Positions 4,776 to 29,553 of a stretch of DNA of 64,000 nt are shown here, in pieces. Below the pieces are notes generated by a model. That model ran no database searches, had not been told where the DNA came from, and worked only from the letters and a program-made list of their open reading frames with translations. The stretch's first letter is position 1. Every line of letters starts with the position of its first letter. Location: assembly GCA_003132585.1 (NCBI GenBank), contig PKYG01000097.1, forward strand, positions 1,790 through 65,789. The letters are read 5' to 3'. A program made the translations under genes and the position numbers. Origin of the DNA: Actinomycetota bacterium. Lineage in GTDB: Bacteria > Actinomycetota > Thermoleophilia > UBA2241.

Positions 4776-4804
4776 CGGCCGCCGGCGCGCAAGGAGAGTG
4801 AACC

Positions 4805-8330: not shown

Positions 8331-8339
8331 AGCTCGCGC

Positions 8340-11281: not shown

Positions 11282-11844
11282 AGCGAGGCCTCGGCAAGCT
11301 CGCTGAGGATGTGCTCGATCACAATGTGTGCCTCCTGAGTGCGCGCGGTGTCGGTGCTGGGCACGGCGAGGAGCACGTCGCAGACGCCGGCGAGCCGGCC
11401 GCCGCCCTCGCCGGTGAGCGCGATCACCCTGAGGCCGCCGGCGCGCGCCGCGGCGGCGGCCTTGAGCACATTCGCGCTCTCGCCGCTGGTGGAGATCGCG
11501 AGCAGCACGTCGCCGGCGCGGCCGAGCGCCGCGACCTGCCGCGCGAAGACCTCGTCGAAGCCGTGGTCGTTGGCGACCGCCGTGACGATCGACGTGTTGG
11601 TCGTGAGTGCGATCGCCGGCAGGGCGCGGCGCTCGAGCCGGAAGCGGCCGACGAACTCGGCGGCGACGTGCTGGGCGTCGGCGGCGGAGCCGCCGTTGCC
11701 GCAGACCAGCAGCTTGCCGCCGGCCGAGAGCGAGTCGTGGATGAGCGCGTGCGCCCGGCAGATCTCGGCGCTCAGCGCCGAGACTGCCGCCATCACGCGC
11801 TCATGCTCCGCCAGGCGCTTGGCGACGATGCTCACACCGTCCAT
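11275..11844 (-). CDS. gmhA: Phosphoheptose isomerase (SIS domain).
   Basis: MDGVSIVAKRLAEHERVM... LLVCGNGGSAADAQHVAAEF... AISTSGESANVL SIS motifs. True start ATG at 11844. Longer ORF-track extension is an overlap artefact. Confidence 0.8.
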   Translation of the reverse strand: MDGVSIVAKRLAEHERVMAAVSALSAEICRAHALIHDSLSAGGKLLVCGNGGSAADAQHVAAEFVGRFRLERRALPAIALTTNTSIVTAVANDHGFDEVFARQVAALGRAGDVLLAISTSGESANVLKAAAAARAGGLRVIALTGEGGGRLAGVCDVLLAVPSTDTARTQEAHIVIEHILSELAEASLC

Positions 11845-15614: not shown

Positions 15615-16024
15615 CACCGTGGACCTCTGATTTCGAGATCATCGAGAAGGACGGCGCGGAACTGTGCTACGTCATCCGCGCCGAGCTCGCTCCCGACACC
15701 ACCACGTTCGTCACGCCATCCCACTACAAGCAGCAGGTGGGCTTCATCGCCTATCCCGCCGGCGGCGAAGTGCAGCGTCACCTGCACCTGCCCCTCGAGC
15801 GGCACCTCGTGGGCACGTCCGAGGTACTCTTCGTCCGCAAGGGTCGCTGCATTCTGGATGTGTACGACGACGCGAAGGAGCTTGTGGCCAGCCGTGAGGT
15901 CAAGGCCGGCGACCTTGTGCTGATGGTGGGCGGCGGCCATGGGTTCCGCATGCTCGAAGACACGCTCTTCCTCGAGGTGAAGCAGGGCCCATACCTCGAG
16001 TGCGAGGAGAAGGAGCGCTTCTGA
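15611..16024 (+). CDS. Cupin-fold protein (WxcM/FdtA-like sugar 3,4-ketoisomerase candidate).
   Basis: 137 aa, ATG 15611 in ATGA overlap with upstream stop. Small beta-barrel-type composition with His residues (QRHLHLPLERHL...GGGHGF). Confidence 0.55.
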   Translation: MTPWTSDFEIIEKDGAELCYVIRAELAPDTTTFVTPSHYKQQVGFIAYPAGGEVQRHLHLPLERHLVGTSEVLFVRKGRCILDVYDDAKELVASREVKAGDLVLMVGGGHGFRMLEDTLFLEVKQGPYLECEEKERF

Positions 16025-16959
16025 TGCACCCGATTCGTCATGCGAAAGCCCTCGTGCGTGAGCGCCTGACGAATGTCGTCCGTTCGGAGGTCCGGGCGGA
16101 GATGAGAACCACCGCCACTCTTGCCGCGCAGGTGGTCGAGGCACGCCAGGCTGGTGCAAGTCGTCTCGCTTCGACCTATGACCACACCAAGAGTCCCAGC
16201 GACGAGTTCTACGGCGATCTAGCTGAGAGGCTGCGGGGCGCCGGCGTGCATGTACAGACCAAACAGGTCGATGTGGCGCGCTTCTCGGACTGGGCCGAGG
16301 GACACCCCGGCCTCTGGGACTGCTATTACGGGGATCCTGCGACTCGCGTGGAGAAGCTGCTTGAGCACTTCCTCTCCGAGGAATCGACCCGTCTCACTGC
16401 GGGGATGGCCTACATCGATGTCGCGGCAGCCGGTGGTCACTGGGTCTCATGTCTGCGAGGTGCAGGACTGAATGCACTGGCCTTGGACCTGAGCTACCCG
16501 CAGGGAGTGCACGGGTGGCGCATCGGTGCAGATGCCCAGGAGATACCGCTTCCCAGTGGCTCGGTCGATGCCGTGTCCGCTCAGTGCGCGTTTGAATGCT
16601 TCCAGGGCGGTGCCGATGTTGGGTTCATGCGTGAGGCTGCGCGACTACTGCGCCTCGGAGGGAGGCTGGCGATCGTTCCCTTGTACGTGGAAGACGCTCA
16701 CTTCATCGCGACGAGTCCCTACACCATCGTCGAGCCGGGCTGTTTCGACGAGGGTGCAGCGGTGGTGTGGCGTGATGATGAGTACGATGAGCCGTTCGCT
16801 CGACACTACTCGCCGGAAGCTCTGGTCGATAGGCTGGGCGACGCACTCGGTCTGTTCTCGGAAACGAGAGTCGTGCACATGACCAATCTCGAGTCACTCC
16901 GAGAGCGTTGGCCCGGATCACGCCTGTACGCCTACTTCATGTTGGAGTGTCGCAAGTGA
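16024..16959 (+). CDS. Class I SAM-dependent methyltransferase.
   Basis: Methyltransf_11-like: IDVAAAGGHW (motif I-like) ... LLRLGGRLAIV (post-II). ATG 16024 overlaps upstream TGA (TGATG). Confidence 0.65.
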   Translation: MHPIRHAKALVRERLTNVVRSEVRAEMRTTATLAAQVVEARQAGASRLASTYDHTKSPSDEFYGDLAERLRGAGVHVQTKQVDVARFSDWAEGHPGLWDCYYGDPATRVEKLLEHFLSEESTRLTAGMAYIDVAAAGGHWVSCLRGAGLNALALDLSYPQGVHGWRIGADAQEIPLPSGSVDAVSAQCAFECFQGGADVGFMREAARLLRLGGRLAIVPLYVEDAHFIATSPYTIVEPGCFDEGAAVVWRDDEYDEPFARHYSPEALVDRLGDALGLFSETRVVHMTNLESLRERWPGSRLYAYFMLECRK

Positions 16960-16981
16960 CGCCCGACCTGCTGGTGAGCCG

Positions 16982-18097
16982 ATGATCCCGGTCAACGAGC
17001 CGGCGCTCGGCGAGCGCGAGATCGAGCTTGTCGCCGACTGCGTGCGCAGCGGCTGGGTATCGTCCGCAGGCCGCTACCTGGACGAGTTCGAGCGGCGCTG
17101 GGCGGAGTACTGCGACATGAAACACGGGGTCGCCGTTTCCAGCGGTACGGCGGCGCTGGATGTCGCTGTCAGCTGTCTCCGGCTGCAGCCGGGTGACGAG
17201 GTCATCCTGCCGTCGTTCACAATCATCTCGTGCGCCCAGGCGATCACTAAGCACGGTGGGCTGCCGGTGCTGGTGGACTGCGATCCGGACACATGGTGCC
17301 TGGACGTAGACCAAGTCGCCGCACGCATCACGCCGCGCACGCGCGCGGTCATGGCCGTGCACATGTATGGCCACCCCGCCGACATGGACCCCCTGCGCGA
17401 GCTGGCGGACCGTCATGGGTTGGTGCTCATCGAGGATGCGGCCGAGGCGCATGGGGCCGAGTACAAGAGGAAGCGCTGCGGAGGGCTAGGAGACATCTCG
17501 TGCTTCAGCTTCTACGCTAACAAGATCATCACGACGGGCGAGGGCGGCATGATCCTCACGGACCGCGACGACTGGGCGGCCCACGCGCGTGCGTATCGCA
17601 ACCTCTGCTTTGGCAGCGAGCGACGCTTCCACCACGAGGAGCTTGGCGAGAACTACCGTATGACCAACATGCAGGCGGCTCTCGGGGTGGCCCAGCTCGA
17701 CCGGGTGGACGAGATCGTGGCGCACAAGCGCGCCATGGCCGCGGCGTACACTGAGCGCCTGCAGTCGTGCAAGGCTCTGCGGCTCCCCACAGAGCGTGAG
17801 TGGGCGCGCAGCACGTTCTGGATGTACGGCGTGGTGCTCAAGGACGGCGGCCGCGGCGCTGCGGGTCTCGCGGTGGAGTTGGCGAAGCGGCTGCAGGCGC
17901 GCGGTGTGCAAACGCGGCCGTTCTTCCTGGGCATGCACGAGCAGCCGGCCTTCCACCGCATGGGCCTGTTCGCAGGCGAGGAGTACCCGGTCACGGAGAT
18001 GCTCGCCCGCCAAGGCCTGTACCTGCCGTCCGGGACGGCTCTGCAACTAAGCCAGGTGGACCAGGTCGCCGCCGCCGTCAACGAGGTGATGAGATGA
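16982..18097 (+). CDS. DegT/DnrJ/EryC1/StrS-family PLP-dependent sugar aminotransferase.
   Basis: VSSGTAALDVA ... IEDAAEAHGAEY ... FSFYANKIITTGEGGMI (Schiff-base Lys present). Confidence 0.85.
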   Translation: MIPVNEPALGEREIELVADCVRSGWVSSAGRYLDEFERRWAEYCDMKHGVAVSSGTAALDVAVSCLRLQPGDEVILPSFTIISCAQAITKHGGLPVLVDCDPDTWCLDVDQVAARITPRTRAVMAVHMYGHPADMDPLRELADRHGLVLIEDAAEAHGAEYKRKRCGGLGDISCFSFYANKIITTGEGGMILTDRDDWAAHARAYRNLCFGSERRFHHEELGENYRMTNMQAALGVAQLDRVDEIVAHKRAMAAAYTERLQSCKALRLPTEREWARSTFWMYGVVLKDGGRGAAGLAVELAKRLQARGVQTRPFFLGMHEQPAFHRMGLFAGEEYPVTEMLARQGLYLPSGTALQLSQVDQVAAAVNEVMR

Positions 18098-18161
18098 GCG
18101 CGTGGTTTGTCGGAGCCGTGTCTAGTACTGCGACGTTAACCGCAAGCGGGAGTGAGACCAG

Positions 18162-19100
18162 ATGACGCCGCGCATCCTAGTCACGGGCGCGGCGGGCTAC
18201 CTTGGGTCGGTCCTCGTCGGCCGGCTTCTCGACGGCGGCTTCGCGGTTCGCGCGGTCGATGCCCTGATCTATGGGCAAACGAGCCTGCTTCACTACTGCG
18301 GTCAAGCCGGTTTCGAGTTCGTCCGAGGCGACGTCAGAAACGAAGACCTCGTGCAACAGTCGCTTAGTGCTGTGGATGCCATCGTACCGCTGGCTGCACT
18401 CGTCGGTGCGCCCGTGTGCAGTCGCGATCCGTGGTCGGCCCGTGCGGTGAACTTCGAGGCCATCGCCATGCTGGCGCGTTTGCGGTCGCCATCGCAGCTG
18501 ATCGTGTTTCCGAACACCAACAGTATCTACGGGCACACTGCGTCTGGCTCGGTCTGTACCGAAGACTCGCCACTTGCTCCCGTGTCGGTGTACGCGCAGA
18601 CCAAATACGAGGCGGAGCAGACGGTGCTGGGGGCTGGGAACTCGCTCAGTCTGAGGATGGCGACGATGTTCGGTGCCTCGGCACGGATGCGCACCGATCT
18701 GCTCGTCAACGATTTCGTGTACTCCGCGTGCACCGCGCGTTCCATCGTGGTCTTCGACCACACCTTCCGCCGGAACTTCGTACACGTGCGCGATGCTGCG
18801 GACTGCATCACCCACTGCCTTGAGAACGCAGGGGACATGGCGGGTGGTGTCTATAACCTTGGTCTCGATGAGAGCAACCTTACAAAAGGCGAGCTTGCCA
18901 TGCGCGTTGCGAGCCACGTGCCCGGGTGCCATGTGGAGTTGGCGCAGATCGAGACTGACCCAGACAGACGCAGCTACACCATCTCGAGCGCGGCTCTCGC
19001 GGGAAAGGGCTTCGTTGCCAGGCGCTCCTTGGACGCGGGCATCGAGGAGCTCAAGACGGCATTCGAAATGTGGCCCCGCAGTCGCTTCGGCAACGTATGA
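18162..19100 (+). CDS. NAD(P)-dependent epimerase/dehydratase or reductase (extended SDR).
   Basis: ILVTGAAGYLGSVLV Rossmann. SVYAQTKYEAE (YxxxK). ATG 18162. Confidence 0.75.
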   Translation: MTPRILVTGAAGYLGSVLVGRLLDGGFAVRAVDALIYGQTSLLHYCGQAGFEFVRGDVRNEDLVQQSLSAVDAIVPLAALVGAPVCSRDPWSARAVNFEAIAMLARLRSPSQLIVFPNTNSIYGHTASGSVCTEDSPLAPVSVYAQTKYEAEQTVLGAGNSLSLRMATMFGASARMRTDLLVNDFVYSACTARSIVVFDHTFRRNFVHVRDAADCITHCLENAGDMAGGVYNLGLDESNLTKGELAMRVASHVPGCHVELAQIETDPDRRSYTISSAALAGKGFVARRSLDAGIEELKTAFEMWPRSRFGNV

Positions 19101-19936
19101 GCGATGGTACTTCCGGAGGAGGCGGCCGTGACTGGAGTGGGATCGTGAGCGGAATACCGTTCGGACCCGGTTATGCGTCTGCGTACGATGTGCTCTATGG
19201 CGACAAGGACTACGAGGCAGAGGTCGACATCCTCGAGGCTCTCTTTGCGCGGCACGCCTCATGCGCCGTCCATAGCGTGCTGGATCTGGGCTGTGGTACG
19301 GGGTCCCACGCGCTGCCGTTGGCGGGTCGCAGCTACGCTGTGACCGGAGTGGATGTTTCGTCGGACATGTTGGCTCGTGGCCGCAGCAAGCTGTCAGAGA
19401 CGGAGGTGGAGGTCGAGTTCCGCGAAGGCGACATCCGCAGTTACCGAGACGGGCGGGAATACGACGCGGTCATCATGATGTTCGCTGTGCTCGGCTACCA
19501 ACGCACCAACGCGGACGTTCTCGCCGCTCTCTCCACGGTCGCTGCTCATCTCCGCCCAGGTGGTGTGTTCGTTGCCGACTTCTGGTACGGGCCAGCGGTG
19601 CTGTCCTTGGGTCCCGGGAGTCGACAGAAGACGGCCATGCACGGGAACAGGCGGGTGTTCCGCTTCGCAAGCGGTGTTTGCGACGAGTCGCGTCACACCT
19701 GTGTGGTGGCGTACGACGTACTGACCACAGAGGGTGCGCACGTCTTGTCTGAGGCTCACGAGGACCACGAGATGCGGTTCTTCTTTCCCCTGGAGCTTGA
19801 CTTCGCGCTGGCAGATGCGGGCCTCTGTCGGCTAGCGCTCACCGCATACCCGGACGTGGAGAGTCCGCCCAGTGCCGCGGATTGGTGTGCCTGTCTCGTG
19901 GCACAGCTCGCCCCAGGCCGGTCAGCGTCGCGTTGA
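19097..19936 (+). CDS. SAM-dependent methyltransferase resembling TylM1/DesVI-type amino-sugar N,N-dimethyltransferases.
   Basis: YDVLYGDKDYEAEVDILEALF...VLDLGCGTGSHALPLAG...VTGVDVSSDMLA...EGDIRSY layout as in TylM1. ATG 19097 in ATGA overlap. Confidence 0.65.
   Translation: MSDGTSGGGGRDWSGIVSGIPFGPGYASAYDVLYGDKDYEAEVDILEALFARHASCAVHSVLDLGCGTGSHALPLAGRSYAVTGVDVSSDMLARGRSKLSETEVEVEFREGDIRSYRDGREYDAVIMMFAVLGYQRTNADVLAALSTVAAHLRPGGVFVADFWYGPAVLSLGPGSRQKTAMHGNRRVFRFASGVCDESRHTCVVAYDVLTTEGAHVLSEAHEDHEMRFFFPLELDFALADAGLCRLALTAYPDVESPPSAADWCACLVAQLAPGRSASR
19881..19907. repeat. Short diverged direct repeat (copy A) within the 3' end of the N-methyltransferase gene.
   Basis: ATTGGTGTGCCTGTCTCGTGGCACAGC vs CTTGGCGTGCGTGCCTCGTGGCACAGC at 21461..21487. 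Confidence 0.5.
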
Positions 19937-20140
19937 GAATGGACCCGGCCACCGTGCAGACCAGCCCAAGCGTCGCCTCGAGCCAAGGCGACACGACGCA
20001 ACGCCCCGACCAGGAGGATTGGACGCTCGTGATCCGGCCGAAGGGCCGGTTGGTCGACCTTCGCCTCCGCGAGCCCTGGGCGGCGAGGGAGCTCGTGTGG
20101 TTTAATGGGGGCGTCTCACTTGAGCGCGCCGGTCACCGCA

Positions 20141-20311
20141 ACCTACTGGCGTCTTTTCCTCATGCAGCGGGTGGTTGTGACCATTGCCAGCGTTTATTCG
20201 GCCGACAAAGTCAAGAACCGCATCCATCTGTCTCTCGGCCAGGAAGCCGTCGCTGCCAGGACGTGGTCGCGCAGTGAGCTCAAACGACCCCGTTCCGGAG
20301 TCCATCTGTAA
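20141..20311 (+). pseudogene. Decayed fragment of a PDH-E1-alpha-like (ThDP) gene N-terminus.
   Basis: TYWRLFLMQRVVVTIASVYSADKVKNRIHLSLGQEAVAA aligns to QVYRRLYLIRRVEETIVDIYPTDKVKSPVHLSLGQEAVAA of the intact gene at 21798. Followed by an ~8-codon deletion/frameshift and stop. Confidence 0.55.
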
Positions 20312-20447
20312 CAAGGCTGAAAGGCAACCTAACCAATCTGGAGCGTGCGACCCGCCAACGAGGTGATGGGCTGCGCGCCAACCAAGTAGGTTGGGCCGGG
20401 GCTCGCGTACAGGTTGACGGGGCTGGCGGGGAGGAGTGAAGGCAACG

Positions 20448-21416
20448 ATGGACCCAGCTGAAGAAAGAATCGAGATCATTCCACGCGATTGGCAGTCGGC
20501 TAGGACCTACCTCTGCGATCCGGGAGGATTCCTGAAGCAAGCTGCTGGGGTGGCGCGCAGGTCCATACTGGCAAGCAGAATGGGACGTCCGCTTCGCGCA
20601 GCAAAGCGGCAATACGGACTGATACGTAGTCTCAAGAGTACGCTGCTGTGGCCGTTTCATGATTTCTGGCTAAGCCCCCCGCCGATGACAGTCACCGTCA
20701 GGCGGTATACGCAGTTCTATAGGGACCTGAGGAGTTACTTTGGGTTGCCGGGTGCAGAGCCTTTTGACATCCGCTGGATGATCCCGCTCATCCACGACAA
20801 GTACTCTGATGCGGGGGATACTGGGCAGTATTTCTATCAAGACATCTGGGCAATGAAGCGCATCATGGAGACCAAAACAAGTTCACACGTAGACGTTGGC
20901 TCGAGAATGATTCTCGTCGGCATGATGAGTGCGATAACGCGTGTGACTTTTGTAGATGTCAGACCACTGCAGTGCAATCTGCCCAATCTGGAGAGCAGAA
21001 TTGGCGATATCACCAATATGCCCTACCCCGATAGCTCGATACCGTCGCTTTCGTGCTTGCATGTAGCTGAACACATCGGTCTAGGTAGGTATGGAGACAA
21101 GCTTGATCCCAAAGGAACCGAGAAGGCAGCTGCGGAGCTTGTTCGGGTTCTCGCGCCAAGTGGGAACCTGTTCTTCTCTGTACCCGTTGGGAACCCGGAG
21201 AGGGTGTATTTCAACTCGCACAGGATGTACTCAGTATCCACCATCATGGCGATGTTCTCAGACCTCGAGCTAGTCGAAGCATCGGGAATTGATGGCGAGA
21301 ACAACTTCATTGAGAATATAGACGTGCGACTGTTCGATGAAGTGAAACACCGTTGGGGTGGCGTGTGTCTGTTGTGGCTTAGGAAGCCTGCTGAAGTAGG
21401 TCGCTCCGATGGATAG
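20448..21416 (+). CDS. DUF268-like (methyltransferase-fold) protein of unknown function. Paralog of 44632..45465.
   Basis: YFYQDIWAMKRIM...HVDVGSR...VTFVDVRP...HVAEHIGLGRYGDKLDP...VLAPSGNLFFSVPVG, shared with the second copy. Confidence 0.55.
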   Translation: MDPAEERIEIIPRDWQSARTYLCDPGGFLKQAAGVARRSILASRMGRPLRAAKRQYGLIRSLKSTLLWPFHDFWLSPPPMTVTVRRYTQFYRDLRSYFGLPGAEPFDIRWMIPLIHDKYSDAGDTGQYFYQDIWAMKRIMETKTSSHVDVGSRMILVGMMSAITRVTFVDVRPLQCNLPNLESRIGDITNMPYPDSSIPSLSCLHVAEHIGLGRYGDKLDPKGTEKAAAELVRVLAPSGNLFFSVPVGNPERVYFNSHRMYSVSTIMAMFSDLELVEASGIDGENNFIENIDVRLFDEVKHRWGGVCLLWLRKPAEVGRSDG

Positions 21417-21460
21417 TCACAGCCTGGCCAGACGGCGCGATCAGCCGACAACCGTGCAGG

Positions 21461-21487
21461 CTTGGCGTGCGTGCCTCGTGGCACAGC
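21461..21487. repeat. Copy B of the N-methyltransferase 3'-end remnant repeat.
   Basis: Translates in one frame to AWRACLVAQPG, cf. DWCACLVAQLAPG at the N-methyltransferase C-terminus. Confidence 0.5.
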
Positions 21488-21797
21488 CGGGCGACGCCGA
21501 CACGGTTGCGCGTTGCTGGATGACCGTGGCTGCCCGACAGGTGGACCTGAACAAACGCGAGGGTCGAGTCGGTGTTTCGGGGCAGACTGATTGGCACAAG
21601 TGGACGCCGGTCATTTGTTCCGAGGCTGAGTGGTGCGACCATCGTCTCCGCGGACTCCTCCTGACAAGAGATCTGGGTTGGCTGTTCTTCTGTCGCGACT
21701 CTGTGGCTGCGCCCGAGCGACTGTCCTGTGCCGACATGTGGTATGCCTCCCGCTCTGTGCCAACGACGACTCTTTCAAGGTCAGGGTTGGTGGCTGA

Positions 21798-22805
21798 TTG
21801 ACCGAGGACATCGGATCGATCGGGCGCCATGAGGCGCATAGTCTTCTAGTGGGAGTTCGTAACTTGACCACTGACATACGGCAGGTCTACAGGCGTCTCT
21901 ACCTGATACGCCGGGTCGAAGAGACGATCGTCGACATCTACCCGACCGACAAGGTAAAGAGCCCCGTTCATCTGTCTCTTGGTCAGGAAGCCGTCGCCGC
22001 GGGGGTGTGCTCGGCATTGCGCCCCGAAGATGTCGTCTTTGGCTCCTATCGGGGTCACGCGAGCTACCTCGCCAAGGGCGGGAACCTCAATGCCATGATG
22101 GCCGAGCTCTTCGGCAAGGCGACTGGGTGCACCAAAGGCAGGGGCGGCTCGATGCATCTCGCCGACGCACGGGCCGGCGTGATGCCCACCTCGGCAATCG
22201 TCGGCTCGACGATAGCGAATGCGGCAGGATACGCCTTTGGGCTCCGTCGACTCGGTACGGATGCGGTGGTAGTCAGCTTTTTTGGTGACGGTGCCACCGA
22301 AGAAGGGGTGTTCTCGGAGGCGCTCAACTTCGCTGCTCTGAAGCGGCTCCCGGTCCTGTTCGTGTGCGAGAACAACAGCTATGCGATTCACACGCATGTG
22401 AGCCGCCGACAGTCGGCGCAGCGCCTGGTCGAGCGCGTCCGCACCTACGGCATTGCTGCTTCACGCGTCGCAGACGCAGATGTCCTGCGCATCGCCACGG
22501 AGGCGCAGGAGTGTGTGCAGGCATTGCGCGAAGGCCGCGGGCCGCGGTTTCTCGAGTGCGCGACGTATCGACTCAGGGAGCACGTGGGGCCGGGTGAGGA
22601 TTGGGACTTGGGCTACCGCTCGCGTGACGAAGCCCTACCCTGGATCCAGAGTGATCAGGTGACGCGACTTGGAGAAATGCTAGAGCCGCGAGAACGAGCG
22701 GCTCTTGAAGCGGCAGTGGAAGGGGAGATCACTGCCGCCGTGGCTTTTGCAGAGGAGAGCCCCTTCCCTGCCGCCAGCGACCTACAGAACGATGTGTTCG
22801 CATGA
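21798..22805 (+). CDS. ThDP-dependent 2-oxoacid dehydrogenase E1 component alpha-subunit-like (PdhA/AcoA-like).
   Basis: SYRGHAS...GGSMHLADARAG...FFGDGATEEGVFSEALNFAALKRLPVLFVCENNSYA (ThDP GDG-N motif). Start assigned to TTG 21798, uncertain. Confidence 0.75.
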   Translation: MTEDIGSIGRHEAHSLLVGVRNLTTDIRQVYRRLYLIRRVEETIVDIYPTDKVKSPVHLSLGQEAVAAGVCSALRPEDVVFGSYRGHASYLAKGGNLNAMMAELFGKATGCTKGRGGSMHLADARAGVMPTSAIVGSTIANAAGYAFGLRRLGTDAVVVSFFGDGATEEGVFSEALNFAALKRLPVLFVCENNSYAIHTHVSRRQSAQRLVERVRTYGIAASRVADADVLRIATEAQECVQALREGRGPRFLECATYRLREHVGPGEDWDLGYRSRDEALPWIQSDQVTRLGEMLEPRERAALEAAVEGEITAAVAFAEESPFPAASDLQNDVFA

Positions 22806-23854
22806 TTGAAGAACGCTCGCTGAGCCAGATAGACGCGATTCGCGAGGCCCTCTCGCAGGAGATGGAGCGGGATGATCGCGTTCTCGTGCTCGGCTTGGGC
22901 GTGGACGATCCGAAGGCGATACTCGGCAGCACGCGCGGTCTCGCGGAGCGCTTCGGCTCCGAGCGCGTGATGGACACGCCTCTCTCTGAGGATTGTATGA
23001 CCGGCGCATGCATAGGTATGGCGATGGCGGGCTTGCGTCCGGTTCATATCCACATTCGCGTCGATTTCCTCATGCTCGCCATGAACCAGATTGTGAATGT
23101 GGCGGCGAAGTCGATGTACATGTCCGGCGGCCAGCAACCCGTACCACTCGTTGTGCGGGCCATCATCGGGCGCAGCTGGGGTCAGGGCGCACAGCACTCT
23201 CAGGCGTTGCACAGCATGTTCATGCATGTGCCGGGCCTCAAGGTCGTGGCCCCCTCGACCCCGCTCGATGCGAAAGCCGCCCTGACCTACGCCATCCGCG
23301 ACGACAACCCCATCATCTTCATCGAGCACCGCATGCTGCATGGCTTCACGGGCGCGGTCCCAAGTGGCGAGGTCCTGAGAGGACCAGGTAGCTGCCGTGT
23401 TCTCAGGCGTGGGGGAGATCTGACCTTGGTGGGCATCTCCTATATGGTGCCCGAGTGCCTGCGCGCTGCAGAGTGGCTGTCCACCGTGGGCATCGAGTGC
23501 GAGGTCCTCGATCCCGTGTGGCTTAGCCCATTAGATGTCGAGGGCATCAACGCATCGGTCGCGAAGACAGGGCGTCTGCTCGTTGCCGACAACGCCTGGC
23601 TTGAGTGCGGCGCGAGCGCCGAGATTGTGGCGGGGGCCTGCGAGGCTTTGGGCTCGACGCGTCGCTTGGCCGTGGGGCGTGTGGGCTTCGCCGCGACCCC
23701 CTGTCCGACGACGCCTGCCCTCGAGGCGGTCTTCTACGCAAGCGCAGCCTCCATCGCGAGCGAGGCGTTCCGCCTGGTCAAGGGCGAGCTACCAGAGCGA
23801 GGCTGCGATCTCGACATGCCACGCGAGGTCCGGGAGTTCAGGGGGCCTTTCTGA
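22802..23854 (+). CDS. 2-oxoacid dehydrogenase E1 component beta-subunit-like (transketolase-like Pyr and C-terminal domains).
   Basis: MDTPLSEDCMTGACIGMAMAGLRP...GLKVVAPSTPLDAKA. ATG 22802 in ATGA overlap with alpha-subunit stop. Confidence 0.8.
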   Translation: MIEERSLSQIDAIREALSQEMERDDRVLVLGLGVDDPKAILGSTRGLAERFGSERVMDTPLSEDCMTGACIGMAMAGLRPVHIHIRVDFLMLAMNQIVNVAAKSMYMSGGQQPVPLVVRAIIGRSWGQGAQHSQALHSMFMHVPGLKVVAPSTPLDAKAALTYAIRDDNPIIFIEHRMLHGFTGAVPSGEVLRGPGSCRVLRRGGDLTLVGISYMVPECLRAAEWLSTVGIECEVLDPVWLSPLDVEGINASVAKTGRLLVADNAWLECGASAEIVAGACEALGSTRRLAVGRVGFAATPCPTTPALEAVFYASAASIASEAFRLVKGELPERGCDLDMPREVREFRGPF

Positions 23855-24894
23855 TGTCCTGTGAGAGTGCCGTCCGGCTTCTGCTTGAGGACGGAGAACT
23901 GGCTTCCCGTCACGCGGGCCTTCACCGGCTGGAGGGCGCCCGCCTACTCATCACGGGGGCCTCCGGCATCATCGGCCTTAATCTCCTTGCAGCCCTCGCG
24001 GCCGCGAGGGCTGCGGGCGTCTCGATGGACATCTACGCGAGCGTCCAGCGGCCGCCTTCCGACGCGCTCAACCGAGTGGCACATGCGGCGGGCGCCATCG
24101 TGGTGGCGAGCGACCTGTCGACGCCGCAGGGAGTGGAGGACTTGCCGATCGCGGACATCATCGTCCATGCCGCCGGCTCGGGCGACCCTGGCGTGTTCCT
24201 GGCAAGAAAAGCGGAGACCCTGTCGATCGGGGCTTGCGCGACCCTTGCCCTGATCCGCCGCCTTCCTCCTAACGGTCGGCTGTTGTTCCTCAGCTCATCA
24301 GAGGTGTACCAGGGCTTGGACGGCCGAATCGCGGACGAGTCCTTGTGTGGCACCACGACGCCGCAGCATCCCCGTGCTGCATATATCGAAGCCAAACGCG
24401 CGGGCGAGGCCGCCTGTGTGGTGGGCCGCGAAGCCGGACTGACAACCACGGTGGCCCGAATTGCGATCACCTACGGCCCTGGGGCTCGCTTGGGCGACAC
24501 GCGTGTCGTGAACGCGCTGATTGAGCGCTCTCTGCGACAGCCCACCACGCAGCTTCTGGATTCCGGGGCCGCCATCAGGACGTTGATCTACACGCGAGAC
24601 GCTGTGGAACTGCTGTGGCGCATCGCTTTGCAGGGGAGAGAGTCCATCTACAACGTAGCCGGGAAGACAGTGGTGACTGTCAAGGAGATGGCCGAGATCG
24701 TTGCTGGAGCGACACACAGTCGCCTCGAGTCGGGCCGCGGCGATGGTGCAGCGGGAGCTGCACGAGAGGTGCGCCTCGACCTAACACGTGTATTGACGGA
24801 GTTCCCCAAGACGGATTTCCTTGATCTTGAAGGCGGTATCGCGAGAACCGTTGAGTGGTACCGTTCTCTGCTGGAGGTGGATGCGCGGGCATGA
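23854..24894 (+). CDS. NAD(P)-dependent epimerase/dehydratase/reductase (extended SDR).
   Basis: LLITGASGIIGLNLL Rossmann. AAYIEAKRAGE (YxxxK). ATG 23854 overlaps upstream TGA. Confidence 0.75.
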   Translation: MSCESAVRLLLEDGELASRHAGLHRLEGARLLITGASGIIGLNLLAALAAARAAGVSMDIYASVQRPPSDALNRVAHAAGAIVVASDLSTPQGVEDLPIADIIVHAAGSGDPGVFLARKAETLSIGACATLALIRRLPPNGRLLFLSSSEVYQGLDGRIADESLCGTTTPQHPRAAYIEAKRAGEAACVVGREAGLTTTVARIAITYGPGARLGDTRVVNALIERSLRQPTTQLLDSGAAIRTLIYTRDAVELLWRIALQGRESIYNVAGKTVVTVKEMAEIVAGATHSRLESGRGDGAAGAAREVRLDLTRVLTEFPKTDFLDLEGGIARTVEWYRSLLEVDARA

Positions 24895-26078
24895 GGGACT
24901 ACAAGTGGAGACTGCAGGAGAACGTCATCAGTGACGCAGACCTGGAGCTGCTGGTGCACTTCATAAGGACGACCAAGCGTTTCACGCAGTTCACAAAGGT
25001 GCGTGAGTTCGAAGAGGCATTTGCTGCGTGGCAAGGATGCAAATACTGCATCATGGTCAACTCGGGCAGCTCCGCCAATCTCGTGGCCGTGGCCGTGGCC
25101 AAGGAGATGCATGGTTGGTCAAGCGGTGACGAAGTGCTCGTGCCTGCGGTGACCTGGCCAACTACGGTGACGCCGGTCATGCAGCTAGGCCTCAAGCCGG
25201 TCTTCGTCGACGTCAACCTGCGGGATCTTTCGTTCGACTACGATGCGCTGGAGAACGCAGTCACGCGTCAGACCAAGGCGGTCTTTGCACCGCACCTCCT
25301 TGGTTTTCCTGCAGATGTTGCCCGCCTCAAGGCCGTCTGCGCGAGTCACGGGCTGATTCTTCTTGAGGATTGCTGCGAATCTCAGGGTGCGGTGGTCGAA
25401 GGAGCCAAGGTCGGGAATCACGGTTTGGCCGGCACCTTTAGCTTCTACTGGGGCCACCATATGACTACGGTCGAGGGCGGGATGATCTGCACCAACGACG
25501 ACGAGGTCCGGGATCTTGCTCTGCTGAAACGCTCACACGGGCTGGCCCGAGAGCTGCCGCAGGACGCTCACGCTGCCTTGCGTCGGCGCTACTCAGACGT
25601 CGTGTTTGACTTCCTCTTCCTGACCGACGGCTTCAACGTTCGCAACACAGAGTTCAATGCTGTCCTCGGGTTGGCCCAGCTCGCTCGCTTGGACGACTTC
25701 ATCCGCATCCGCAACCGCAACTACACACGGTTCCTGGAGATCTGTACACCTTTTGAAGACGAACTTATTCTTCTTCGCGGTTTGGGCATGAGCGCGTTTG
25801 TGCTGCCTTTCGTCTTTCGCGACGTGGCTCGCAAGACGGCCTTTGAAGCCATTCTTCGGCGAGCGGGCATCGAATCACGCCCCTTGATCAGCGGTAATCT
25901 CCTGCGGCAGCCGGTGTTCTCGACGTTTGGCGAGAGCTGCGACTTCCCCAATGCGGAGTATCTGCATCTGCATGCTTTCTACATCGGGAACAACCAGTTC
26001 GTCGAGGCGGAGCGACTTGCGGCGCTTCAGGAGCTGATGGGAGCATTCTTCGCGCGCCCGACCGGGGTTGCCCGCTAG
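24891..26078 (+). CDS. DegT-family protein with His replacing the PLP-lysine. Candidate PMP-dependent sugar 3-dehydratase (E1/RfbH/ColD-like).
   Basis: MVNSGSSANLVAV ... FSFYWGHHMTTVEGGMI, contrasting with FSFYANK / FSFYPGK in the two bona fide aminotransferases of this window. ATG 24891 in ATGA overlap. Confidence 0.65.
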   Translation: MRDYKWRLQENVISDADLELLVHFIRTTKRFTQFTKVREFEEAFAAWQGCKYCIMVNSGSSANLVAVAVAKEMHGWSSGDEVLVPAVTWPTTVTPVMQLGLKPVFVDVNLRDLSFDYDALENAVTRQTKAVFAPHLLGFPADVARLKAVCASHGLILLEDCCESQGAVVEGAKVGNHGLAGTFSFYWGHHMTTVEGGMICTNDDEVRDLALLKRSHGLARELPQDAHAALRRRYSDVVFDFLFLTDGFNVRNTEFNAVLGLAQLARLDDFIRIRNRNYTRFLEICTPFEDELILLRGLGMSAFVLPFVFRDVARKTAFEAILRRAGIESRPLISGNLLRQPVFSTFGESCDFPNAEYLHLHAFYIGNNQFVEAERLAALQELMGAFFARPTGVAR

Positions 26079-26982
26079 CCATGACGAGAGCGCCTTGGGA
26101 CGGGCATCACTAGTGGGAGCTCATGCCGATACGGAAAGGCCAAGCGTCCCTTGGACCTATGTCGTCGGGCCCAAGAGAGGATGGTTTGACCTCCGCCTGC
26201 GAGCAGTGTGGGCTGCACGTGGACTCGTTCGGCTGTTCGTCTGGCGGGACTTCGTGGCCCTCTACAAGCAGACAGTGCTCGGGCCACTGTGGTACGTCGT
26301 GCAGCCATTGCTGACTACAGTGGTGTTCACAGTCGTATTTGGTCGAATCGCGAGTCTCCCCACCGATGAGTTGCCACAGTTCCTCTTCTATATGTCCGGC
26401 ATCGTGATATGGACCTACTTCGCGGGGTGCCTAACGAAAGTGTCCCTCACGTTCATCAGCAACACGCAGTTGTTCGGGAAGGTCTATTTCCCGCGCCAAA
26501 CGGTCCCGCTTTCGCTGGTGGTTTCGAACCTCATCACCTTTGCGGTCCAGTTGGCTCTCCTGATGGGCTTCATCGTTTACTTCGTGATCGTGGGAGGCGC
26601 GGTGCACCCCAATGCGTACGCTCTCTTACTCCCCGTATTGGTTCTGATGACGGCTGCACTTGGATTGGGCGCTGGACTGGTCGTGACGTCGGTCACGATC
26701 CGATATCGCGACCTTCAATACCTGCTTACCTTCGGCGTCCAGCTTGCGATGTTCCTGGCACCGGTTGTGATGCCGCTTTCGAGCGTTCATGGAAAGCTCC
26801 GATGGCTGATGATCGCCAACCCGATGACATCCATCGTGGAGAGTTTCCGCTTCGGACTTCTGGGCGCGGGGGAAGTCAACCCTTGGCAGTTGGCCTTTAG
26901 TGCCGGCGTTGCGGTGGCGTTATGCGTCGTAGGGTTGGGTCTGTTCAACCGAGTAGAGCGGACCTTTATGGACAGCGTATGA
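26068..26982 (+). CDS. wzm: ABC-2 type polysaccharide export permease.
   Basis: Six predicted TM helices (FLFYMSGIVIWTYFAGCL, LVVSNLITFAVQLALLMGFIVYFVIV, etc.), ABC-2 family layout. Start uncertain (TTG 26068 or GTG 26113). Confidence 0.75.
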   Translation: MPASHDESALGRASLVGAHADTERPSVPWTYVVGPKRGWFDLRLRAVWAARGLVRLFVWRDFVALYKQTVLGPLWYVVQPLLTTVVFTVVFGRIASLPTDELPQFLFYMSGIVIWTYFAGCLTKVSLTFISNTQLFGKVYFPRQTVPLSLVVSNLITFAVQLALLMGFIVYFVIVGGAVHPNAYALLLPVLVLMTAALGLGAGLVVTSVTIRYRDLQYLLTFGVQLAMFLAPVVMPLSSVHGKLRWLMIANPMTSIVESFRFGLLGAGEVNPWQLAFSAGVAVALCVVGLGLFNRVERTFMDSV

Positions 26983-28268
26983 CTCAGCATGCCGTTTCTG
27001 TTGAAGCCCTTTCGAAGTGCTATCAACTTGGCACTATCGGCACAGGCACGCTGCACGGCGATCTCAGCAGGGCGTGGGCGCGAGTTCGAAATAGGCCTGA
27101 TCCTTTCTCTGTGATTGGCAGTCAGGTACCCACTAAGACAGCCACGGGTCCGGCGTGGGCTTTGCGAGATGTGTCTTTCGAAGTCGCTGAAGGACAAGTC
27201 ATGGGAATCGTGGGTAGAAACGGTGCGGGCAAGACCACGCTTCTGAAGATCTTGGCTCGAATCACGGCGCCAACCTCGGGGGTGGCGAGAGTCCGTGGTC
27301 GGCTTGCCAGCCTCCTTGAGGTTGGAACCGGCTTCCACCCTGAGCTCACGGGTCGCGACAACGTGCTGTTGAGCGGCACACTTCTCGGGATGAGTAGGAG
27401 AGAGATAGCCGCGCGTTTGGACGAGATTGTGGAGTTCTCCGAGGTAGGCAAGTACTTGGACACGCCGGTCAAAAGGTATTCAAGCGGGATGTACGTGCGC
27501 CTCGCATTCTCGGTGGCTGCGCATCTGTCTGCTGAAGTGCTGCTACTTGATGAGGTCCTGGCAGTCGGGGATGTGGAATTCCAACGAAAGTGCCGAGCTC
27601 ACATACGGTCGCTCGCCGAAGATGAAGGTAGGACCATTCTCTTTGTCAGTCACAATCTGGCCGCCGTCTCTGAGCTTTGCCCACGAACGCTGCTGTTGGA
27701 TCAAGGTGCACTCGCGGCGAATGATTCAACGAGTGAGGTCTTGAGGTCATACGTTCAAGGACTGGGCTCAAGGGATCCCGGCGTGGATGTCTCGGATCCC
27801 GGACTGCGATCTCAGGCCTCTTTGGTGGATAGCTTGTTCAAATGGGTAGGTGTTGAAGTGCGCGGCATCGACGGCGAAATCCTGCCGGAAGTACCCTTCG
27901 GGCAGCCGTTTGAGGTGTCTCTGGTTGGCGAAGCCAGTGCCGATTGCCAGGACTTGCTGATCGGACTTGCGGTGGTGTCGAACATCAGAGGCGTCATTCT
28001 CACTACTCACCAGGCCTACAGCGGGCTGCCGACCTCATACGCCAAAGGACGGCACGAATTCCGCGTGCTGTTCGACCCGAATCTTCTCGCGCCAGGCGCC
28101 TATGACCTCACTGTCGACGTTTTGGGGCCAATGGTGAGGGATCAGATACCAGCGGCTCTTGAGCTGAGCATCATCGATGTCGGGGCCGGAACGCGCGGTA
28201 TCTGGGCAGTCCCAGGTAGAGACGGAATACTTGATGCCCCATGCTCCTGGGACCACTCGCGATGCTGA
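26979..28268 (+). CDS. wzt: ABC transporter ATP-binding protein Wzt with ~180-aa C-terminal carbohydrate-binding (Wzt_C-like) extension.
   Basis: Walker A GRNGAGKTTLLK, signature YSSGMYVRLAFS, Walker B LLLDEVLAVGD. Extra C-terminal beta-rich domain. ATG 26979 in ATGA overlap with wzm. Confidence 0.85.
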   Translation: MTQHAVSVEALSKCYQLGTIGTGTLHGDLSRAWARVRNRPDPFSVIGSQVPTKTATGPAWALRDVSFEVAEGQVMGIVGRNGAGKTTLLKILARITAPTSGVARVRGRLASLLEVGTGFHPELTGRDNVLLSGTLLGMSRREIAARLDEIVEFSEVGKYLDTPVKRYSSGMYVRLAFSVAAHLSAEVLLLDEVLAVGDVEFQRKCRAHIRSLAEDEGRTILFVSHNLAAVSELCPRTLLLDQGALAANDSTSEVLRSYVQGLGSRDPGVDVSDPGLRSQASLVDSLFKWVGVEVRGIDGEILPEVPFGQPFEVSLVGEASADCQDLLIGLAVVSNIRGVILTTHQAYSGLPTSYAKGRHEFRVLFDPNLLAPGAYDLTVDVLGPMVRDQIPAALELSIIDVGAGTRGIWAVPGRDGILDAPCSWDHSRC

Positions 28269-29553
28269 GTTGGCGCGTCGCGCCAAGCCTCGCTTTGAAG
28301 GTGACACAACAGTGACCGGCGACCTGTCCGCTAGAGTAGGGATTGTCTACCGTTCTCAGGACTTTGCCTTGGCCAATGGAGCCCTTTCCCTCAAGGCCTA
28401 TCATGCGGGGGAGCTGCGCAACTTGACGGGCGCGACTGGTCTCGACTACCTCAGTGTGTATGAGAGTCTCGGCCCCGTTGGGTTCGAGAAGTACGTCAAG
28501 AAGTGGGTCACTGACAACGAAATCCGCATCCTGTTCTTTGTCACCACCTTGTGGCTCGAGTTCGACACGGAGCTTCTGCTGTGGCTCTCGCAACGAGTCT
28601 TCATTGTTCATTGGATGTTCGACGATGTTACGGAGTTCGACGTGTTCTCTCGCTACTACGGTCAGTTCGCGGACCTAGTGTTGGTCGAGGACTACGTTAC
28701 TGCCCTGCGCTACGAGCAGATGGGGGTCAGTGCGCACTTTCGCACGCCGATCTACAGTGCCGAGATGTACAGCCCGATGGACCTGCCTCGCAGCGTGGAC
28801 GTGTCAATGGTTGGCATCCTGGCGGCGCAAGGGCGGGGTGAGTGCGTGCGTCGTCTCCGCCAAGAGGGTTTTGCCGTCGCGACCTACGGTGTCGATAGCC
28901 CGGCGGGACCCGTGTCACTTGAGCGGATGAGGGAGATCTTCTGCACGAGCAAAGTGAACCTTAACACGGCTGGAGTGACTCCTAGCAGGCGTGCTGCACG
29001 AGACCCTTCCGTGGCTCTTCGCAGACAGATCAAAGGCCGAATCACTGAAGTCGCGTTGACGCGATCCTTCGTCCTGACTGAGTATAGCCCAGGCCTTGAG
29101 CAAGCGTGGGGCATCGACACCGAAATCGGTGTTTTTCATACGCATGCGGAGCTGATCGCCAAGACTCGTTACTACTTGAGTCACGACGACGAGCGAGAGG
29201 CCATATCGTCTGCCGCATATGCGCGGGCCATTCGTGATTACGCTGGTCCCGCAGCCTTCGCTCGAGTCTTCGAGGAGGTGCTGGCACGGTTCTACGAGAC
29301 GGACTGGGCTGCAAAGCAGACTCGGACCAAACCCCCTCGCCTGGGCGAGGATGTGGGCCGAATCGTCGTAGCCAACCGCTTGGGGCGCTCCTGGCAGTTC
29401 GCGCGTGCCCATTCCTGGCGGGCGGCTGGTCAAGAAATGTCAATCGCTTGCACCGAGGCTTCTTCGGCTGCGCGCGCTCGTAGAGGCCGCGTTTGTCGCC
29501 CCGCTAGGTACCTGAAGATCGGTGCTAGGGCCGTGCTCGGACGGCTCCGGTAG
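28234..29553 (+). CDS. CgeB-like / DUF3880 glycosyltransferase-family protein (paralog 1 of 3).
   Basis: C-terminal region ...TRSFVLTEYSPGLEQAWGIDTEIGVFHTHAELIAKTRYYL resembles CgeB/GT1-like C-terminus shared with 29660 and 46933 genes. Start ATG 28234 uncertain. Confidence 0.45.
   Translation: MPHAPGTTRDAELARRAKPRFEGDTTVTGDLSARVGIVYRSQDFALANGALSLKAYHAGELRNLTGATGLDYLSVYESLGPVGFEKYVKKWVTDNEIRILFFVTTLWLEFDTELLLWLSQRVFIVHWMFDDVTEFDVFSRYYGQFADLVLVEDYVTALRYEQMGVSAHFRTPIYSAEMYSPMDLPRSVDVSMVGILAAQGRGECVRRLRQEGFAVATYGVDSPAGPVSLERMREIFCTSKVNLNTAGVTPSRRAARDPSVALRRQIKGRITEVALTRSFVLTEYSPGLEQAWGIDTEIGVFHTHAELIAKTRYYLSHDDEREAISSAAYARAIRDYAGPAAFARVFEEVLARFYETDWAAKQTRTKPPRLGEDVGRIVVANRLGRSWQFARAHSWRAAGQEMSIACTEASSAARARRGRVCRPARYLKIGARAVLGRLR

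Follow-up and report, generated by a model that had tools for sequence, protein, structure and literature searches.

A translationally coupled gene cassette predicted to join sugar 3-deoxygenation and two-carbon branching in a surface-glycan locus of a Thermoleophilia bacterium

The 64-kb stretch of DNA from an uncultured Actinomycetota (Thermoleophilia) bacterium analysed here, referred to as the window, raises the question of why genes resembling those of the two E1 subunits of pyruvate dehydrogenase (PDH) are found in a surface-glycan locus. An E1-alpha-type ThDP-binding subunit (positions 21864–22805), an E1-beta-type subunit (22802–23854), an extended SDR, termed SDRa (23854–24894), and a DegT-fold protein (P0001; 24891–26078) are encoded in that order on the + strand. 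Start and stop codons of successive genes overlap by 4, 1 and 4 nt, and the genes are translationally coupled. A first-pass annotation had described an E1 pair coupled to an SDR and followed by a DegT protein, and the Pfam domains and overlaps bear this out. The genes also lie within the limits it gave, 21798–26078, but E1-alpha more likely starts at the TTG at 21864. This start was picked from the gene calls of relatives and from a GGGAG Shine–Dalgarno-like motif 5′ of it, and gives 313 aa, as in the relatives; the upstream TTG at 21798 is an alternative start that would give 335 aa. Directly 3′ of the four genes is a Wzm permease and Wzt ATPase pair for ABC-transporter glycan export (26068–28268, + strand; PF01061 and PF00005, a weak Wzt_C match and NCBIfam Wzm/Wzt-type matches). 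The four genes are best explained as one operon-like cassette serving one pathway. Judged from the sequences, it is fairly probable that the product of the cassette is a GDP-activated sugar, branched at C-4 and 3-deoxy (probably 3,6-dideoxy), that enters the exported glycan, with the DegT-fold protein as the deoxygenating and the E1 pair as the branching enzyme.

The DegT-fold protein (PF01041, 1e-69) has its true start at 24891 and a length of 395 aa. Its top solved relative is ColD (PDB 2gms, 1.7e-66), the GDP-4-keto-6-deoxy-D-mannose 3-dehydratase of the colitose pathway in E. coli O55, as against 6e-43 for AscC/E1 (3bcx). In a multiple alignment the Schiff-base Lys column is filled by the first His of FYWGHH, as the annotation had claimed. 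The same column holds His188 of ColD, a position anchored by the mutant chains H188N and H188K (3b8x, 2r0t), His220 of AscC/E1 and the Lys of the two ordinary aminotransferases of the window (16982–18097, motif FSFYANK; 54736–55866, motif FSFYPGK). The alignment shows no counterpart in the protein of the Cys-rich [2Fe-2S] insert of AscC. By sequence the protein thus groups with the 3-dehydratases of the DegT family, as a putative PMP-dependent enzyme of ColD type; of the earlier designation "E1/ColD-type", the AscC/E1 half falls away. Since a ColD-type enzyme without the Fe-S insert is independent of E3, the proposed search for a cognate E3 reductase, which found none among the scanned window ORFs, is moot.

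The likeness to ColD extends to fold, length and the nucleotide-sugar site: Arg is kept at two sites where ColD has arginines, which we take to be Arg219 and Arg331 that bind the GDP pyrophosphate, and both are invariant in the ColD-like subfamily to which the protein belongs. The subfamily differs from ColD in a distinct, tightly conserved motif, FYWGHHM, with HH invariant in 22 homologues at 62–100% identity and Gly in place of ColD Ser187 before the His. In the multiple alignment it is only 34% identical to ColD, yet 50–77% identical internally across phyla. Such a distance might suggest another order of events, in which ThDP-dependent acetyl branching comes first and the His-type DegT enzyme forms its ketimine on the branch ketone, with loss of the tertiary C-4 hydroxyl to yield a 4-deoxy-4-C-acetyl sugar. 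This is formally ColD chemistry, as the hydroxyl is lost adjacent to the ketimine carbon. It is nevertheless very unlikely, given the ColD alignment with its retained GDP-contacting arginines and the occurrence of the subfamily in genomes without ThDP enzymes, and we know of no precedent for branching before elimination.

The E1-alpha subunit matches PF00676 (2e-57) and displays the ThDP motif GDGATEEG...x...CENN, and E1-beta has the Transket_pyr (PF02779, 4e-32) and Transketolase_C (PF02780, 3e-24) domains. Their top solved relatives are human PDH E1-alpha (2e-40) and E1-beta (1e-62), and the catalytic His residues are retained, in E1-alpha the one aligned with human His263 and in E1-beta that of AQHSQ. 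By fold and motif the pair could therefore be the heterotetrameric E1 of a pyruvate, acetoin or branched-chain 2-oxoacid dehydrogenase complex, located here by chance, but this is extremely improbable. Both subunits score below the NCBIfam PDH equivalog cut-offs (E1-alpha, 282 bits against 394 for TIGR03182; E1-beta, 260 against 321 for NF006667). No E2 or E3 partner was found among the scanned window ORFs, nor in related loci including L005, L055 and L056. The E1 genes overlap with those of the SDR and the ColD-like enzyme and are co-conserved with nucleotide-sugar genes; the identical four-gene order recurs in MAGs of Thermoleophilia, Verrucomicrobiota, Anaerolineaceae and Saccharibacteria. 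A short two-subunit E1 takes the place of the pair in other genomes; it lacks the transketolase-C domain, the site of E2 binding in PDH E1-beta. Because the PDH lipoyl-acylation His residues are conserved in the pair, sequence alone leaves room for a lipoyl partner encoded elsewhere. The pair is placed in the sugar-branching E1 clade by genomic context. MAGs of Verrucomicrobiota, Anaerolineaceae, Omnitrophota and the candidate phyla radiation also encode relatives of the pair.

That E1 alpha/beta pairs can donate two-carbon branches to sugars is accepted (PMC4802897, PMC12247030), and on this point the annotation was correct. Known examples are the antibiotic "alpha-KADH2" pairs AviB1/B2, Plm8/9 (= Pau11/12) and KbDH-alpha/beta, which also lack E2/E3, are encoded beside deoxysugar genes, and are proposed to attach two carbons from pyruvate to a keto-sugar, as shown in vitro for KbDH (PMC4802897, PMC4753412, PMC12247030). 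Those pairs belong to actinomycete secondary-metabolite clusters and act on dTDP-type 2,6- or 2,3,6-deoxysugars. The window pair, likened to them by context, differs in being part of a Wzm/Wzt surface-glycan locus and in being coupled to a ColD-type 3-dehydratase.

The ColD-like subfamily was surveyed in 45 species-level genomes, all MAGs, from many phyla. In 34 of the 45 loci (kinship ignored) a ThDP enzyme is encoded no more than 10 kb from the ColD-like gene, as it is in 19 of the 24 loci where each flank measures 6 kb or more. The architectures vary: E1 alpha/beta (9 loci), split transketolase (9), YerE/ALS-like (7), short E1 (6), and E1 alpha/beta together with transketolase (3). Four unrelated ThDP architectures thus fill one slot between conserved neighbours, a pattern suggestive of non-orthologous displacement, with the ColD-like enzyme and SDRa as the constant core. 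SDRa itself (PF01370, 2e-29) has GxxGxxG, SSSE and YxxxK motifs and distant solved relatives only, among them UDP-xylose synthase at 8e-19. Its gene is found in 33 of 47 loci carrying the ColD-like gene. It accompanies ThDP enzymes of any architecture: 30 loci have both, 4 the ThDP enzyme only, 2 SDRa only and 9 neither (Fisher p=3.6e-5; 45 loci, kinship ignored). The corresponding counts in well-sampled loci are 22, 3, 0 and 5. SDRa is proposed to be the reductase of the acyl branch, although with its TSE-like SSSE motif it could have a role other than that of a branch ketoreductase.

The 11 loci in which no ThDP enzyme was seen within the available sequence indicate that coupling to branching is not obligatory in the subfamily; in 6 of them the upstream flank is shorter than 5 kb, such that absence cannot be judged there. 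Four of the 11 keep only a fucose-synthase-like SDRb beside the ColD-like gene. This brings to mind the known colitose route, in which ColD is followed by a reductase or epimerase. Perhaps the ColD-like enzyme and SDR of the window likewise make an unbranched, colitose-like 3,6-dideoxyhexose, with the E1 pair serving something unrelated, e.g. an acyl/acyloin substituent or donor. We regard this as unlikely: SDRa goes with the ThDP enzyme and is missing from the well-sampled loci without one, unrelated ThDP enzymes occupy one slot among conserved neighbours, and the four cassette genes overlap at their ends. The usual partners of the subfamily are a ThDP carboligase and SDRa, not ColC alone as for ColD. 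Because comparative genomics ties the two, 3-deoxygenation and the E1 pair are here assigned to one pathway; the annotation had listed them separately.

In the pathway that we infer, a GDP-4-keto sugar would be supplied by GDP-mannose 4,6-dehydratase (Gmd), as GDP-4-keto-6-deoxy-D-mannose, or by a second SDR, SDR2, with the 6-OH retained. The ColD-like enzyme, its PMP renewed from L-glutamate, would build a C-4 ketimine, and its His as base would eliminate the 3-OH to give a 4-keto-3-deoxy sugar, with no need of an Fe-S cluster or E3 reductase. The E1 alpha2beta2 enzyme would decarboxylate pyruvate on ThDP, and the hydroxyethyl-ThDP carbanion would attack the C-4 ketone in place of lipoyl-E2 to yield a 4-C-acetyl tertiary alcohol. 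Finally, SDRa would turn the branch ketone into 1-hydroxyethyl, producing a yersiniose-type octose of manno-derived stereochemistry. Yersiniose synthesis in Yersinia and Pseudomonas (AscC/E1 with E3, YerE, YerF) shows the same logic, i.e. a 4-keto-3-deoxy sugar, ThDP-dependent C-4 acylation from a 2-oxoacid and branch reduction, and is likewise encoded in a surface-polysaccharide locus (PMC9306805, PMC4509608). There, YerE acts on the 4-keto-3,6-dideoxy sugar before reduction by YerF (PMC9306805). The predicted pathway differs in its Fe-S-free, ColD-type 3-dehydratase with no E3 found, in a nucleotide that is probably GDP rather than CDP, and in a two-subunit E1 carboligase in place of the single-chain flavoprotein YerE.

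Two candidates for the supplier of the 4-keto sugar are present in the window. SDR2 (18162–19100, + strand), 2.7 kb 5′ of the cassette in the same gene string, matches PDB 6vo6 over its full length (2.5e-88). We take 6vo6 to be Cj1427 of C. jejuni, and SDR2 is probably a Cj1427-like GDP-sugar C4-dehydrogenase. Acting on GDP-mannose or GDP-glycero-manno-heptose, it would lead to a 3-deoxy-4-C-branched product that keeps its 6-OH and is not 3,6-dideoxy, and 2-oxoglutarate from the ColD-like enzyme would re-oxidise its bound NADH. This substrate is possible, if doubtful. SDR2 orthologues are encoded immediately 5′ of the ThDP enzyme in L056 and L057, and directly adjoin the ColD-like gene in L027 and L050; clustered orthologues lie close to the ColD-like gene, and on its strand, in 12 of 47 loci analysed (L001 and L005 among them), and tblastn at 36% identity or more detects an orthologue in 7 of 45 species-level loci. 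Heptose-nucleotide genes (SIS/GmhA-like, HddA-like kinase, HAD phosphatase) are also present in the window. Cj1427 and a ColD-like C3-dehydratase (HS:5) cooperate in vitro, with PLP and L-glutamate, in GDP-linked C4 oxidation and 3-deoxygenation to GDP-3-deoxy-4-keto-heptose (PMC10680097). The Campylobacter pathway differs in ending with epimerases and C4-reductases that yield unbranched heptoses. To our knowledge it has no ThDP step. Against SDR2 as supplier, in the lineage of the window it belongs to another conserved block, with a dehydratase-like SDR, a 137-aa protein, a Lys-type DegT and a methyltransferase, and may serve an amino sugar.

Gmd is the alternative candidate. Its N-terminal part (63604–64000, + strand; TIGR01472, 228 bits, 132-aa fragment) is cut by the window end and is 63% identical to Gmd adjoining ColD-like genes in other phyla. 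As with ColD, Gmd is often encoded nearby: at >45% identity, 8 of 45 loci have it no more than 10 kb from the ColD-like gene, and 9 of 45 do at a 40% cut-off, which speaks against the 6-OH-retaining product. In the window, Gmd is 37 kb from the cassette and beside a GDP-L-fucose-synthase-like gene located 5′ of it (62613–63581, 427 bits), and therefore may serve fucose. In place of the 3,6-dideoxy sugar of the annotation, the product may be 3-deoxy if SDR2 rather than Gmd provides the substrate. No nucleotidyltransferase was found in the 64-kb window.

A separate sub-cluster encodes a YerE/JanthE-like ThDP carboligase (2083–3963, + strand) with three TPP_enzyme domains, which the annotation had rightly recognized. 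Its top solved relative is PDB 8rph (1.8e-131), i.e. JanthE, which catalyses aldehyde–ketone cross-coupling (PMC12188165). It is 35% identical to the ALS-like enzyme beside ColD-like genes in other genomes, and is potentially a second C-branching enzyme. The pairing of 3-deoxygenation with C2-branching has been described only piecemeal, in pathogen O-antigens and antibiotic sugars. To call it rare for a surface-glycan locus, as had been done, is apt only where systems have been characterised; the module turned up in 47 species-level genomes even in a narrow pattern scan, and the pairing proves to be widespread in uncultured microbes.

The export genes vary in position. In relatives the Wzm/Wzt pair is placed 5′ of the cassette, not 3′. 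The cassette order is kept at 76% identity in a relative where Wzm/Wzt switch sides, and is kept in Verrucomicrobiota and Anaerolineaceae as well.

Four genes on the + strand at 21.8–26.1 kb form a cassette in which successive gene ends overlap by 4, 1 and 4 nt. The first gene (21864–22805) encodes an E1-alpha subunit of 313 aa (PF00676, 2e-57) and the second (22802–23854) an E1-beta subunit with Transket_pyr and Transketolase_C domains. These are followed by SDRa (23854–24894), an extended short-chain dehydrogenase (PF01370, 2e-29), and by P0001 (24891–26078), a DegT-family protein of 395 aa (PF01041, 1.4e-69). The E1-alpha start is a TTG at 21864 that sits behind a GGGAG motif; this start and that of the DegT gene at 24891 were set from how the genes are called in identical metagenome contigs and in relatives. 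A 407-aa form of the DegT ORF found no exact look-up match because the true start is 36 nt further downstream, and the 395-aa form was matched. Just 5′ of E1-alpha there is an apparently non-coding gap of 450 bp (21417–21863), which displays neither an Rfam match nor a consensus promoter. The Rfam scan of the whole window gave zero RNA families, and a promoter/terminator scan of 19800–28400 gave fewer sites than in shuffles and is uninformative.

The whole window is one very large glycan locus, with many GT2, GT4 and GT10-like glycosyltransferases, a GT87 and methyltransferases. Wzm/Wzt genes are found directly 3′ of the cassette, and the locus also has two phosphoglycosyl transferases and a Wzz-like protein. 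The methyltransferases include two paralogues of the DUF268 type (20436–21416 and 44587–45465). The G+C content is 0.58–0.64 in the central 18000–50000 region, with minima at 20–22 kb and 26–28 kb, versus 0.66–0.72 in the flanks; the low-G+C segment, which contains the cassette, is compatible with horizontal acquisition. An IS21-family element consisting of an IstB-like ATPase and a transposase-like ORF is located in the middle of the glycan locus (35161–37152, - strand), and the insertion is shared by the identical metagenome contigs L001–L003.

The first-pass annotation had placed a His at the Schiff-base Lys position of P0001, and alignment bears this out. The first His of the FYWGHH motif shares one column with ColD His188, the AscC His and the Lys of the two window aminotransferases (FSFYANK and FSFYPGK), the ColD column being fixed by the mutant chains H188N (3b8x) and H188K (2r0t). 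FYWGHHM is invariant in 22 aligned subfamily sequences, which are 62–100% identical to each other. Among solved structures, the best match of P0001 is ColD (2gms, 1.7e-66, full-length alignment), whereas AscC/E1 (3bcx) is far weaker at 6e-43. In the multiple alignment P0001 has just 34% identity to ColD.

Thus the proposal of a 3-dehydratase of the E1/ColD kind stands for the ColD type but not for the AscC/E1 type. The Cys-rich insert of AscC (RDWGRDCYCAPGCDNTCKK), which carries its [2Fe-2S] cluster ligands, is missing from both P0001 and ColD in the multiple alignment, and the NCBIfam RfbH model gives P0001 235 bits, under its 423-bit cut-off. Together with the weaker structure match, these properties led us to reject an AscC/E1-type identity. 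The cognate E3 reductase that the first pass proposed to look for was not found: no ferredoxin-reductase-like E3 gene is present among the window ORFs scanned, and a ColD-type enzyme needs none. With the insert absent and no E3-like gene seen, P0001 is predicted to belong to the glutamate-recycling, Fe-S-free (ColD) branch. Arg is kept in P0001 at two ColD arginine positions, which we take to be Arg219 and Arg331.

The E1 pair has a two-subunit architecture, with a GDG...NN ThDP motif in alpha and pyrimidine-binding and transketolase-C domains in beta. Both subunits align to pyruvate dehydrogenase (PDH) E1 structures, and both fall short of the NCBIfam PDH equivalog cut-offs: alpha scores 282 bits against a threshold of 394, and beta 260 against 321. 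Both subunits retain the catalytic His of PDH E1, two residues in all, which does not discriminate between dehydrogenase and branching roles. As had been read from the sequence alone, the pair stands without E2/E3: no lipoyl, 2-oxoacid_dh (2-oxoacid-acyltransferase) or Pyr_redox/dihydrolipoamide-dehydrogenase domains are found in the ~50 window ORFs scanned, nor are E2/E3 genes found in the related loci examined. With no such partner among the ORFs scanned, and given the synteny, a catabolic role in pyruvate or acetoin dehydrogenation was rejected, and the pair is predicted not to be a member of a dehydrogenase complex. It shares with sugar-branching alpha-KADH2 pairs the two-subunit domain layout, the lack of E2/E3 partners among the ORFs scanned and the nucleotide-sugar gene setting. 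Its linkage to the ColD-like gene and its interchangeability with YerE-like and transketolase enzymes suggest that it would pass a C2 unit from pyruvate on to a keto-sugar.

The comparative evidence comes from a scan with subfamily motifs, using one genome per species, that yielded 47 loci, all from metagenome-assembled genomes (MAGs) of many phyla; neighbouring ORFs were clustered and then re-searched on both strands. The gene order E1-alpha, E1-beta, SDR, ColD-like is conserved in L005, L055 and L056, with Verrucomicrobiota and Anaerolineaceae MAGs among its carriers. In a relative at 76% identity the four genes are intact and Wzm/Wzt lies on the opposite side. The nearest species-level genome, an uncultured Thermoleophilia MAG, is 77% identical on the DegT protein; its E1-beta and SDRa matches (L008, 7878–9950) are in pieces, which suggests frameshifts or assembly errors. 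Together with the GT87, this nearest genome suggests that the window comes from an uncultured lineage of the Actinomycetota.

Of 45 loci, 34 have a ThDP enzyme within 10 kb of the ColD-like gene; where the flanks reach at least 6 kb on both sides, the figure is 19 of 24. By class, with family assignments checked, E1 alpha/beta is found in 9 loci, a split transketolase in 9, a YerE/ALS-like enzyme in 7 and a short two-subunit E1 in 6. E1 alpha/beta and transketolase occur together in 3 loci (L029, L041 and L043). SDRa accompanies the ColD-like gene in 30/34 ThDP-bearing loci versus 2/11 without a ThDP enzyme (Fisher p=3.6e-5, uncorrected for phylogeny), and the two latter loci are both on truncated contigs. 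A second dehydrogenase, the fucose-synthase-like SDRb (175 bits, GDP-L-fucose synthase), adjoins the ColD-like gene even where there is no ThDP enzyme. The first-pass suggestion of C-3 deoxygenation plus branching was essentially right, but the comparative genomics points to one coupled pathway rather than to separate features.

Split transketolase genes (~270 + 303 aa) are neighbours of SDRa and of the ColD-like gene in L010, L011, L014, L018, L020, L024, L029, L035, L041 and L043. Their hosts are Geobacterales, Holophagaceae, Verrucomicrobia, Omnitrophota, Patescibacteria and one Methanomicrobiales MAG. The short E1 fills the same ThDP slot in phylogenetically scattered MAGs (L057, L013, L022, L049, L051 and L052). 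In L057 its genes are at 6829–7443 and 7482–7988. Subunit one is ~204 aa and has a GDM...DN ThDP motif; subunit two, of ~170–178 aa, has the E1-beta pyrimidine domain only and no transketolase-C domain.

The window has two candidate sources of a 4-keto substrate. At its end a fucose-synthase-like gene is followed by GDP-mannose 4,6-dehydratase, Gmd (62613–64000, cut at the window end; first 132 residues, 228 bits). The Gmd fragment means that GDP-4-keto-6-deoxy-mannose, the substrate of ColD, should be available. Gmd is a neighbour of the ColD-like gene in 8/45 loci (>45% identity) or 9/45 (40% cut-off). The kept arginines, the Gmd neighbours and the window-end fragment lend indirect support to GDP-4-keto-6-deoxy-D-mannose as a candidate substrate of P0001. 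With a GT10 fucosyltransferase-like gene also present (45720–46811), the glycan probably contains fucose or a related 6-deoxyhexose as well.

The other candidate is SDR2 (18162–19100), a probable GDP-sugar C4-dehydrogenase that matches PDB 6vo6 at 2.5e-88. This structure we take to be Cj1427 of C. jejuni, a 2-oxoglutarate-dependent GDP-heptose C4-dehydrogenase. A 2-oxoglutarate need of SDR2, if it is Cj1427-like, would mesh with the 2-oxoglutarate freed by a ColD-type enzyme. In vitro, Cj1427 and a ColD-like C3-dehydratase together give GDP-3-deoxy-4-keto-heptose (PMC10680097). GmhA-, HddA- and GmhB-like heptose genes are found in the window. An SDR2 homologue of at least 36% identity is near the ColD-like gene in 7/45 loci, and clustered orthologues occur in 12/47 loci. 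Since the window holds both Gmd and SDR2 with heptose genes, the product may be either a 3,6-dideoxy or a 3-deoxy sugar. SDRa was also considered as a missing 4,6-dehydratase, since it has an SSSE motif and remotely matches dehydratases and UXS. That reading was dropped because the locus has a separate Gmd or C4-dehydrogenase and SDRa tracks the ThDP enzyme.

We infer the functions of all cassette genes from sequence and context. A GDP-4-keto sugar would be supplied and the ColD-like enzyme would remove its 3-OH by PMP-dependent elimination. E1 alpha/beta would then add a pyruvate-derived, ThDP-bound hydroxyethyl unit onto the C-4 ketone, and SDRa would reduce the resulting acetyl branch. Tentatively, and with somewhat less than even confidence, the cassette can be viewed as an example of a GDP-based module, not recognised before and spread very widely across phyla, for 4-C-branched 3-deoxy sugars of ABC-transporter-exported envelope glycans. 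Such a module would have a constant core of ColD-like enzyme and SDRa and would recruit one of four ThDP carboligases: E1 alpha/beta, split transketolase, YerE-like, or an undescribed minimal two-subunit E1 (~204 + 175 residues). Presumably a different branch comes from each. Carrier genomes are found in Actinomycetota, Verrucomicrobiota, Acidobacteriota, Desulfobacterota, Omnitrophota and candidate-phyla-radiation lineages, and possibly include a methanogen MAG. Perhaps the branched sugar is the chain-terminal residue recognised by the Wzt carbohydrate-binding domain.

Branched-chain sugars that carry a tertiary alcohol are uncommon, immunodominant and difficult to synthesise. Two separate lines of biosynthesis are described so far: YerE-type enzymes act on CDP sugars of Gram-negative O-antigens, and E1 alpha/beta pairs on dTDP sugars of actinomycete antibiotics. 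The literature consulted places E1 alpha/beta pairs in secondary metabolites and YerE-like enzymes in lipopolysaccharide. The proposed pathway resembles that of yersiniose, where YerE and YerF act on CDP-4-keto-3,6-dideoxyglucose (PMC9306805), and the routes to avilamycin, paulomycin and kibdelomycin, which employ E1 alpha/beta (PMC4802897, PMC4753412, PMC12247030). Unlike these, the cassette brings together, within a surface-glycan locus, a cofactor-simple, ColD-type dehydratase, probable GDP activation and an antibiotic-type E1 alpha/beta carboligase. Literature searches turned up no E1 alpha/beta pair described from an O-antigen or LPS locus, although a bioinformatic survey cited in PMC12247030 may list some. 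Proposed sugar-branching split transketolases are all from Streptomycetes, and the short two-subunit E1 architecture is not among the sugar-branching ThDP classes listed (PMC12247030). The chemistry is of a known kind in a new combination; it is distributed more widely than expected, and its ThDP slot is modular. The genome comparison suggests that uncultured bacteria commonly carry such sugars in their envelopes. The module would be a compact four-gene enzyme set with no Fe-S or flavin reductase; its interchangeable ThDP enzymes would offer a natural panel for chiral tertiary alcohols, and the minimal E1 would be attractive for engineering.

The second ThDP enzyme of the window (2083–3963) is, as first annotated, a true YerE/JanthE-like protein, and lies apart from the cassette in a sub-cluster that includes heptose and AroB-like genes. 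This sub-cluster (1168–12845) also contains a FabG-like SDR, HAD phosphatases, a GT2, a GtrA-domain protein and, on the - strand, an HddA-like kinase, a SIS (GmhA-like) protein and HAD genes. Its AroB-related member is a putative cyclising sugar-phosphate lyase (TIGR04425, 357 bits). Judging from these genes, a long-chain branch may be built from a donor that derives from a heptose or a cyclitol.

A conserved sugar block at 14610–19936 has a LegB/RmlB-like SDR, a methyltransferase, a LegC-like Lys-type aminotransferase, SDR2, a second methyltransferase and a 137-aa protein with zero family matches. The block is intact in Thermoleophilia relatives and partly present in a Desulfatiglandales MAG (L057). 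Its product is probably a methylated amino-deoxy sugar. A radical SAM/SPASM protein (52565–53539), unusual for a polysaccharide locus, is flanked by GT4 glycosyltransferase genes.
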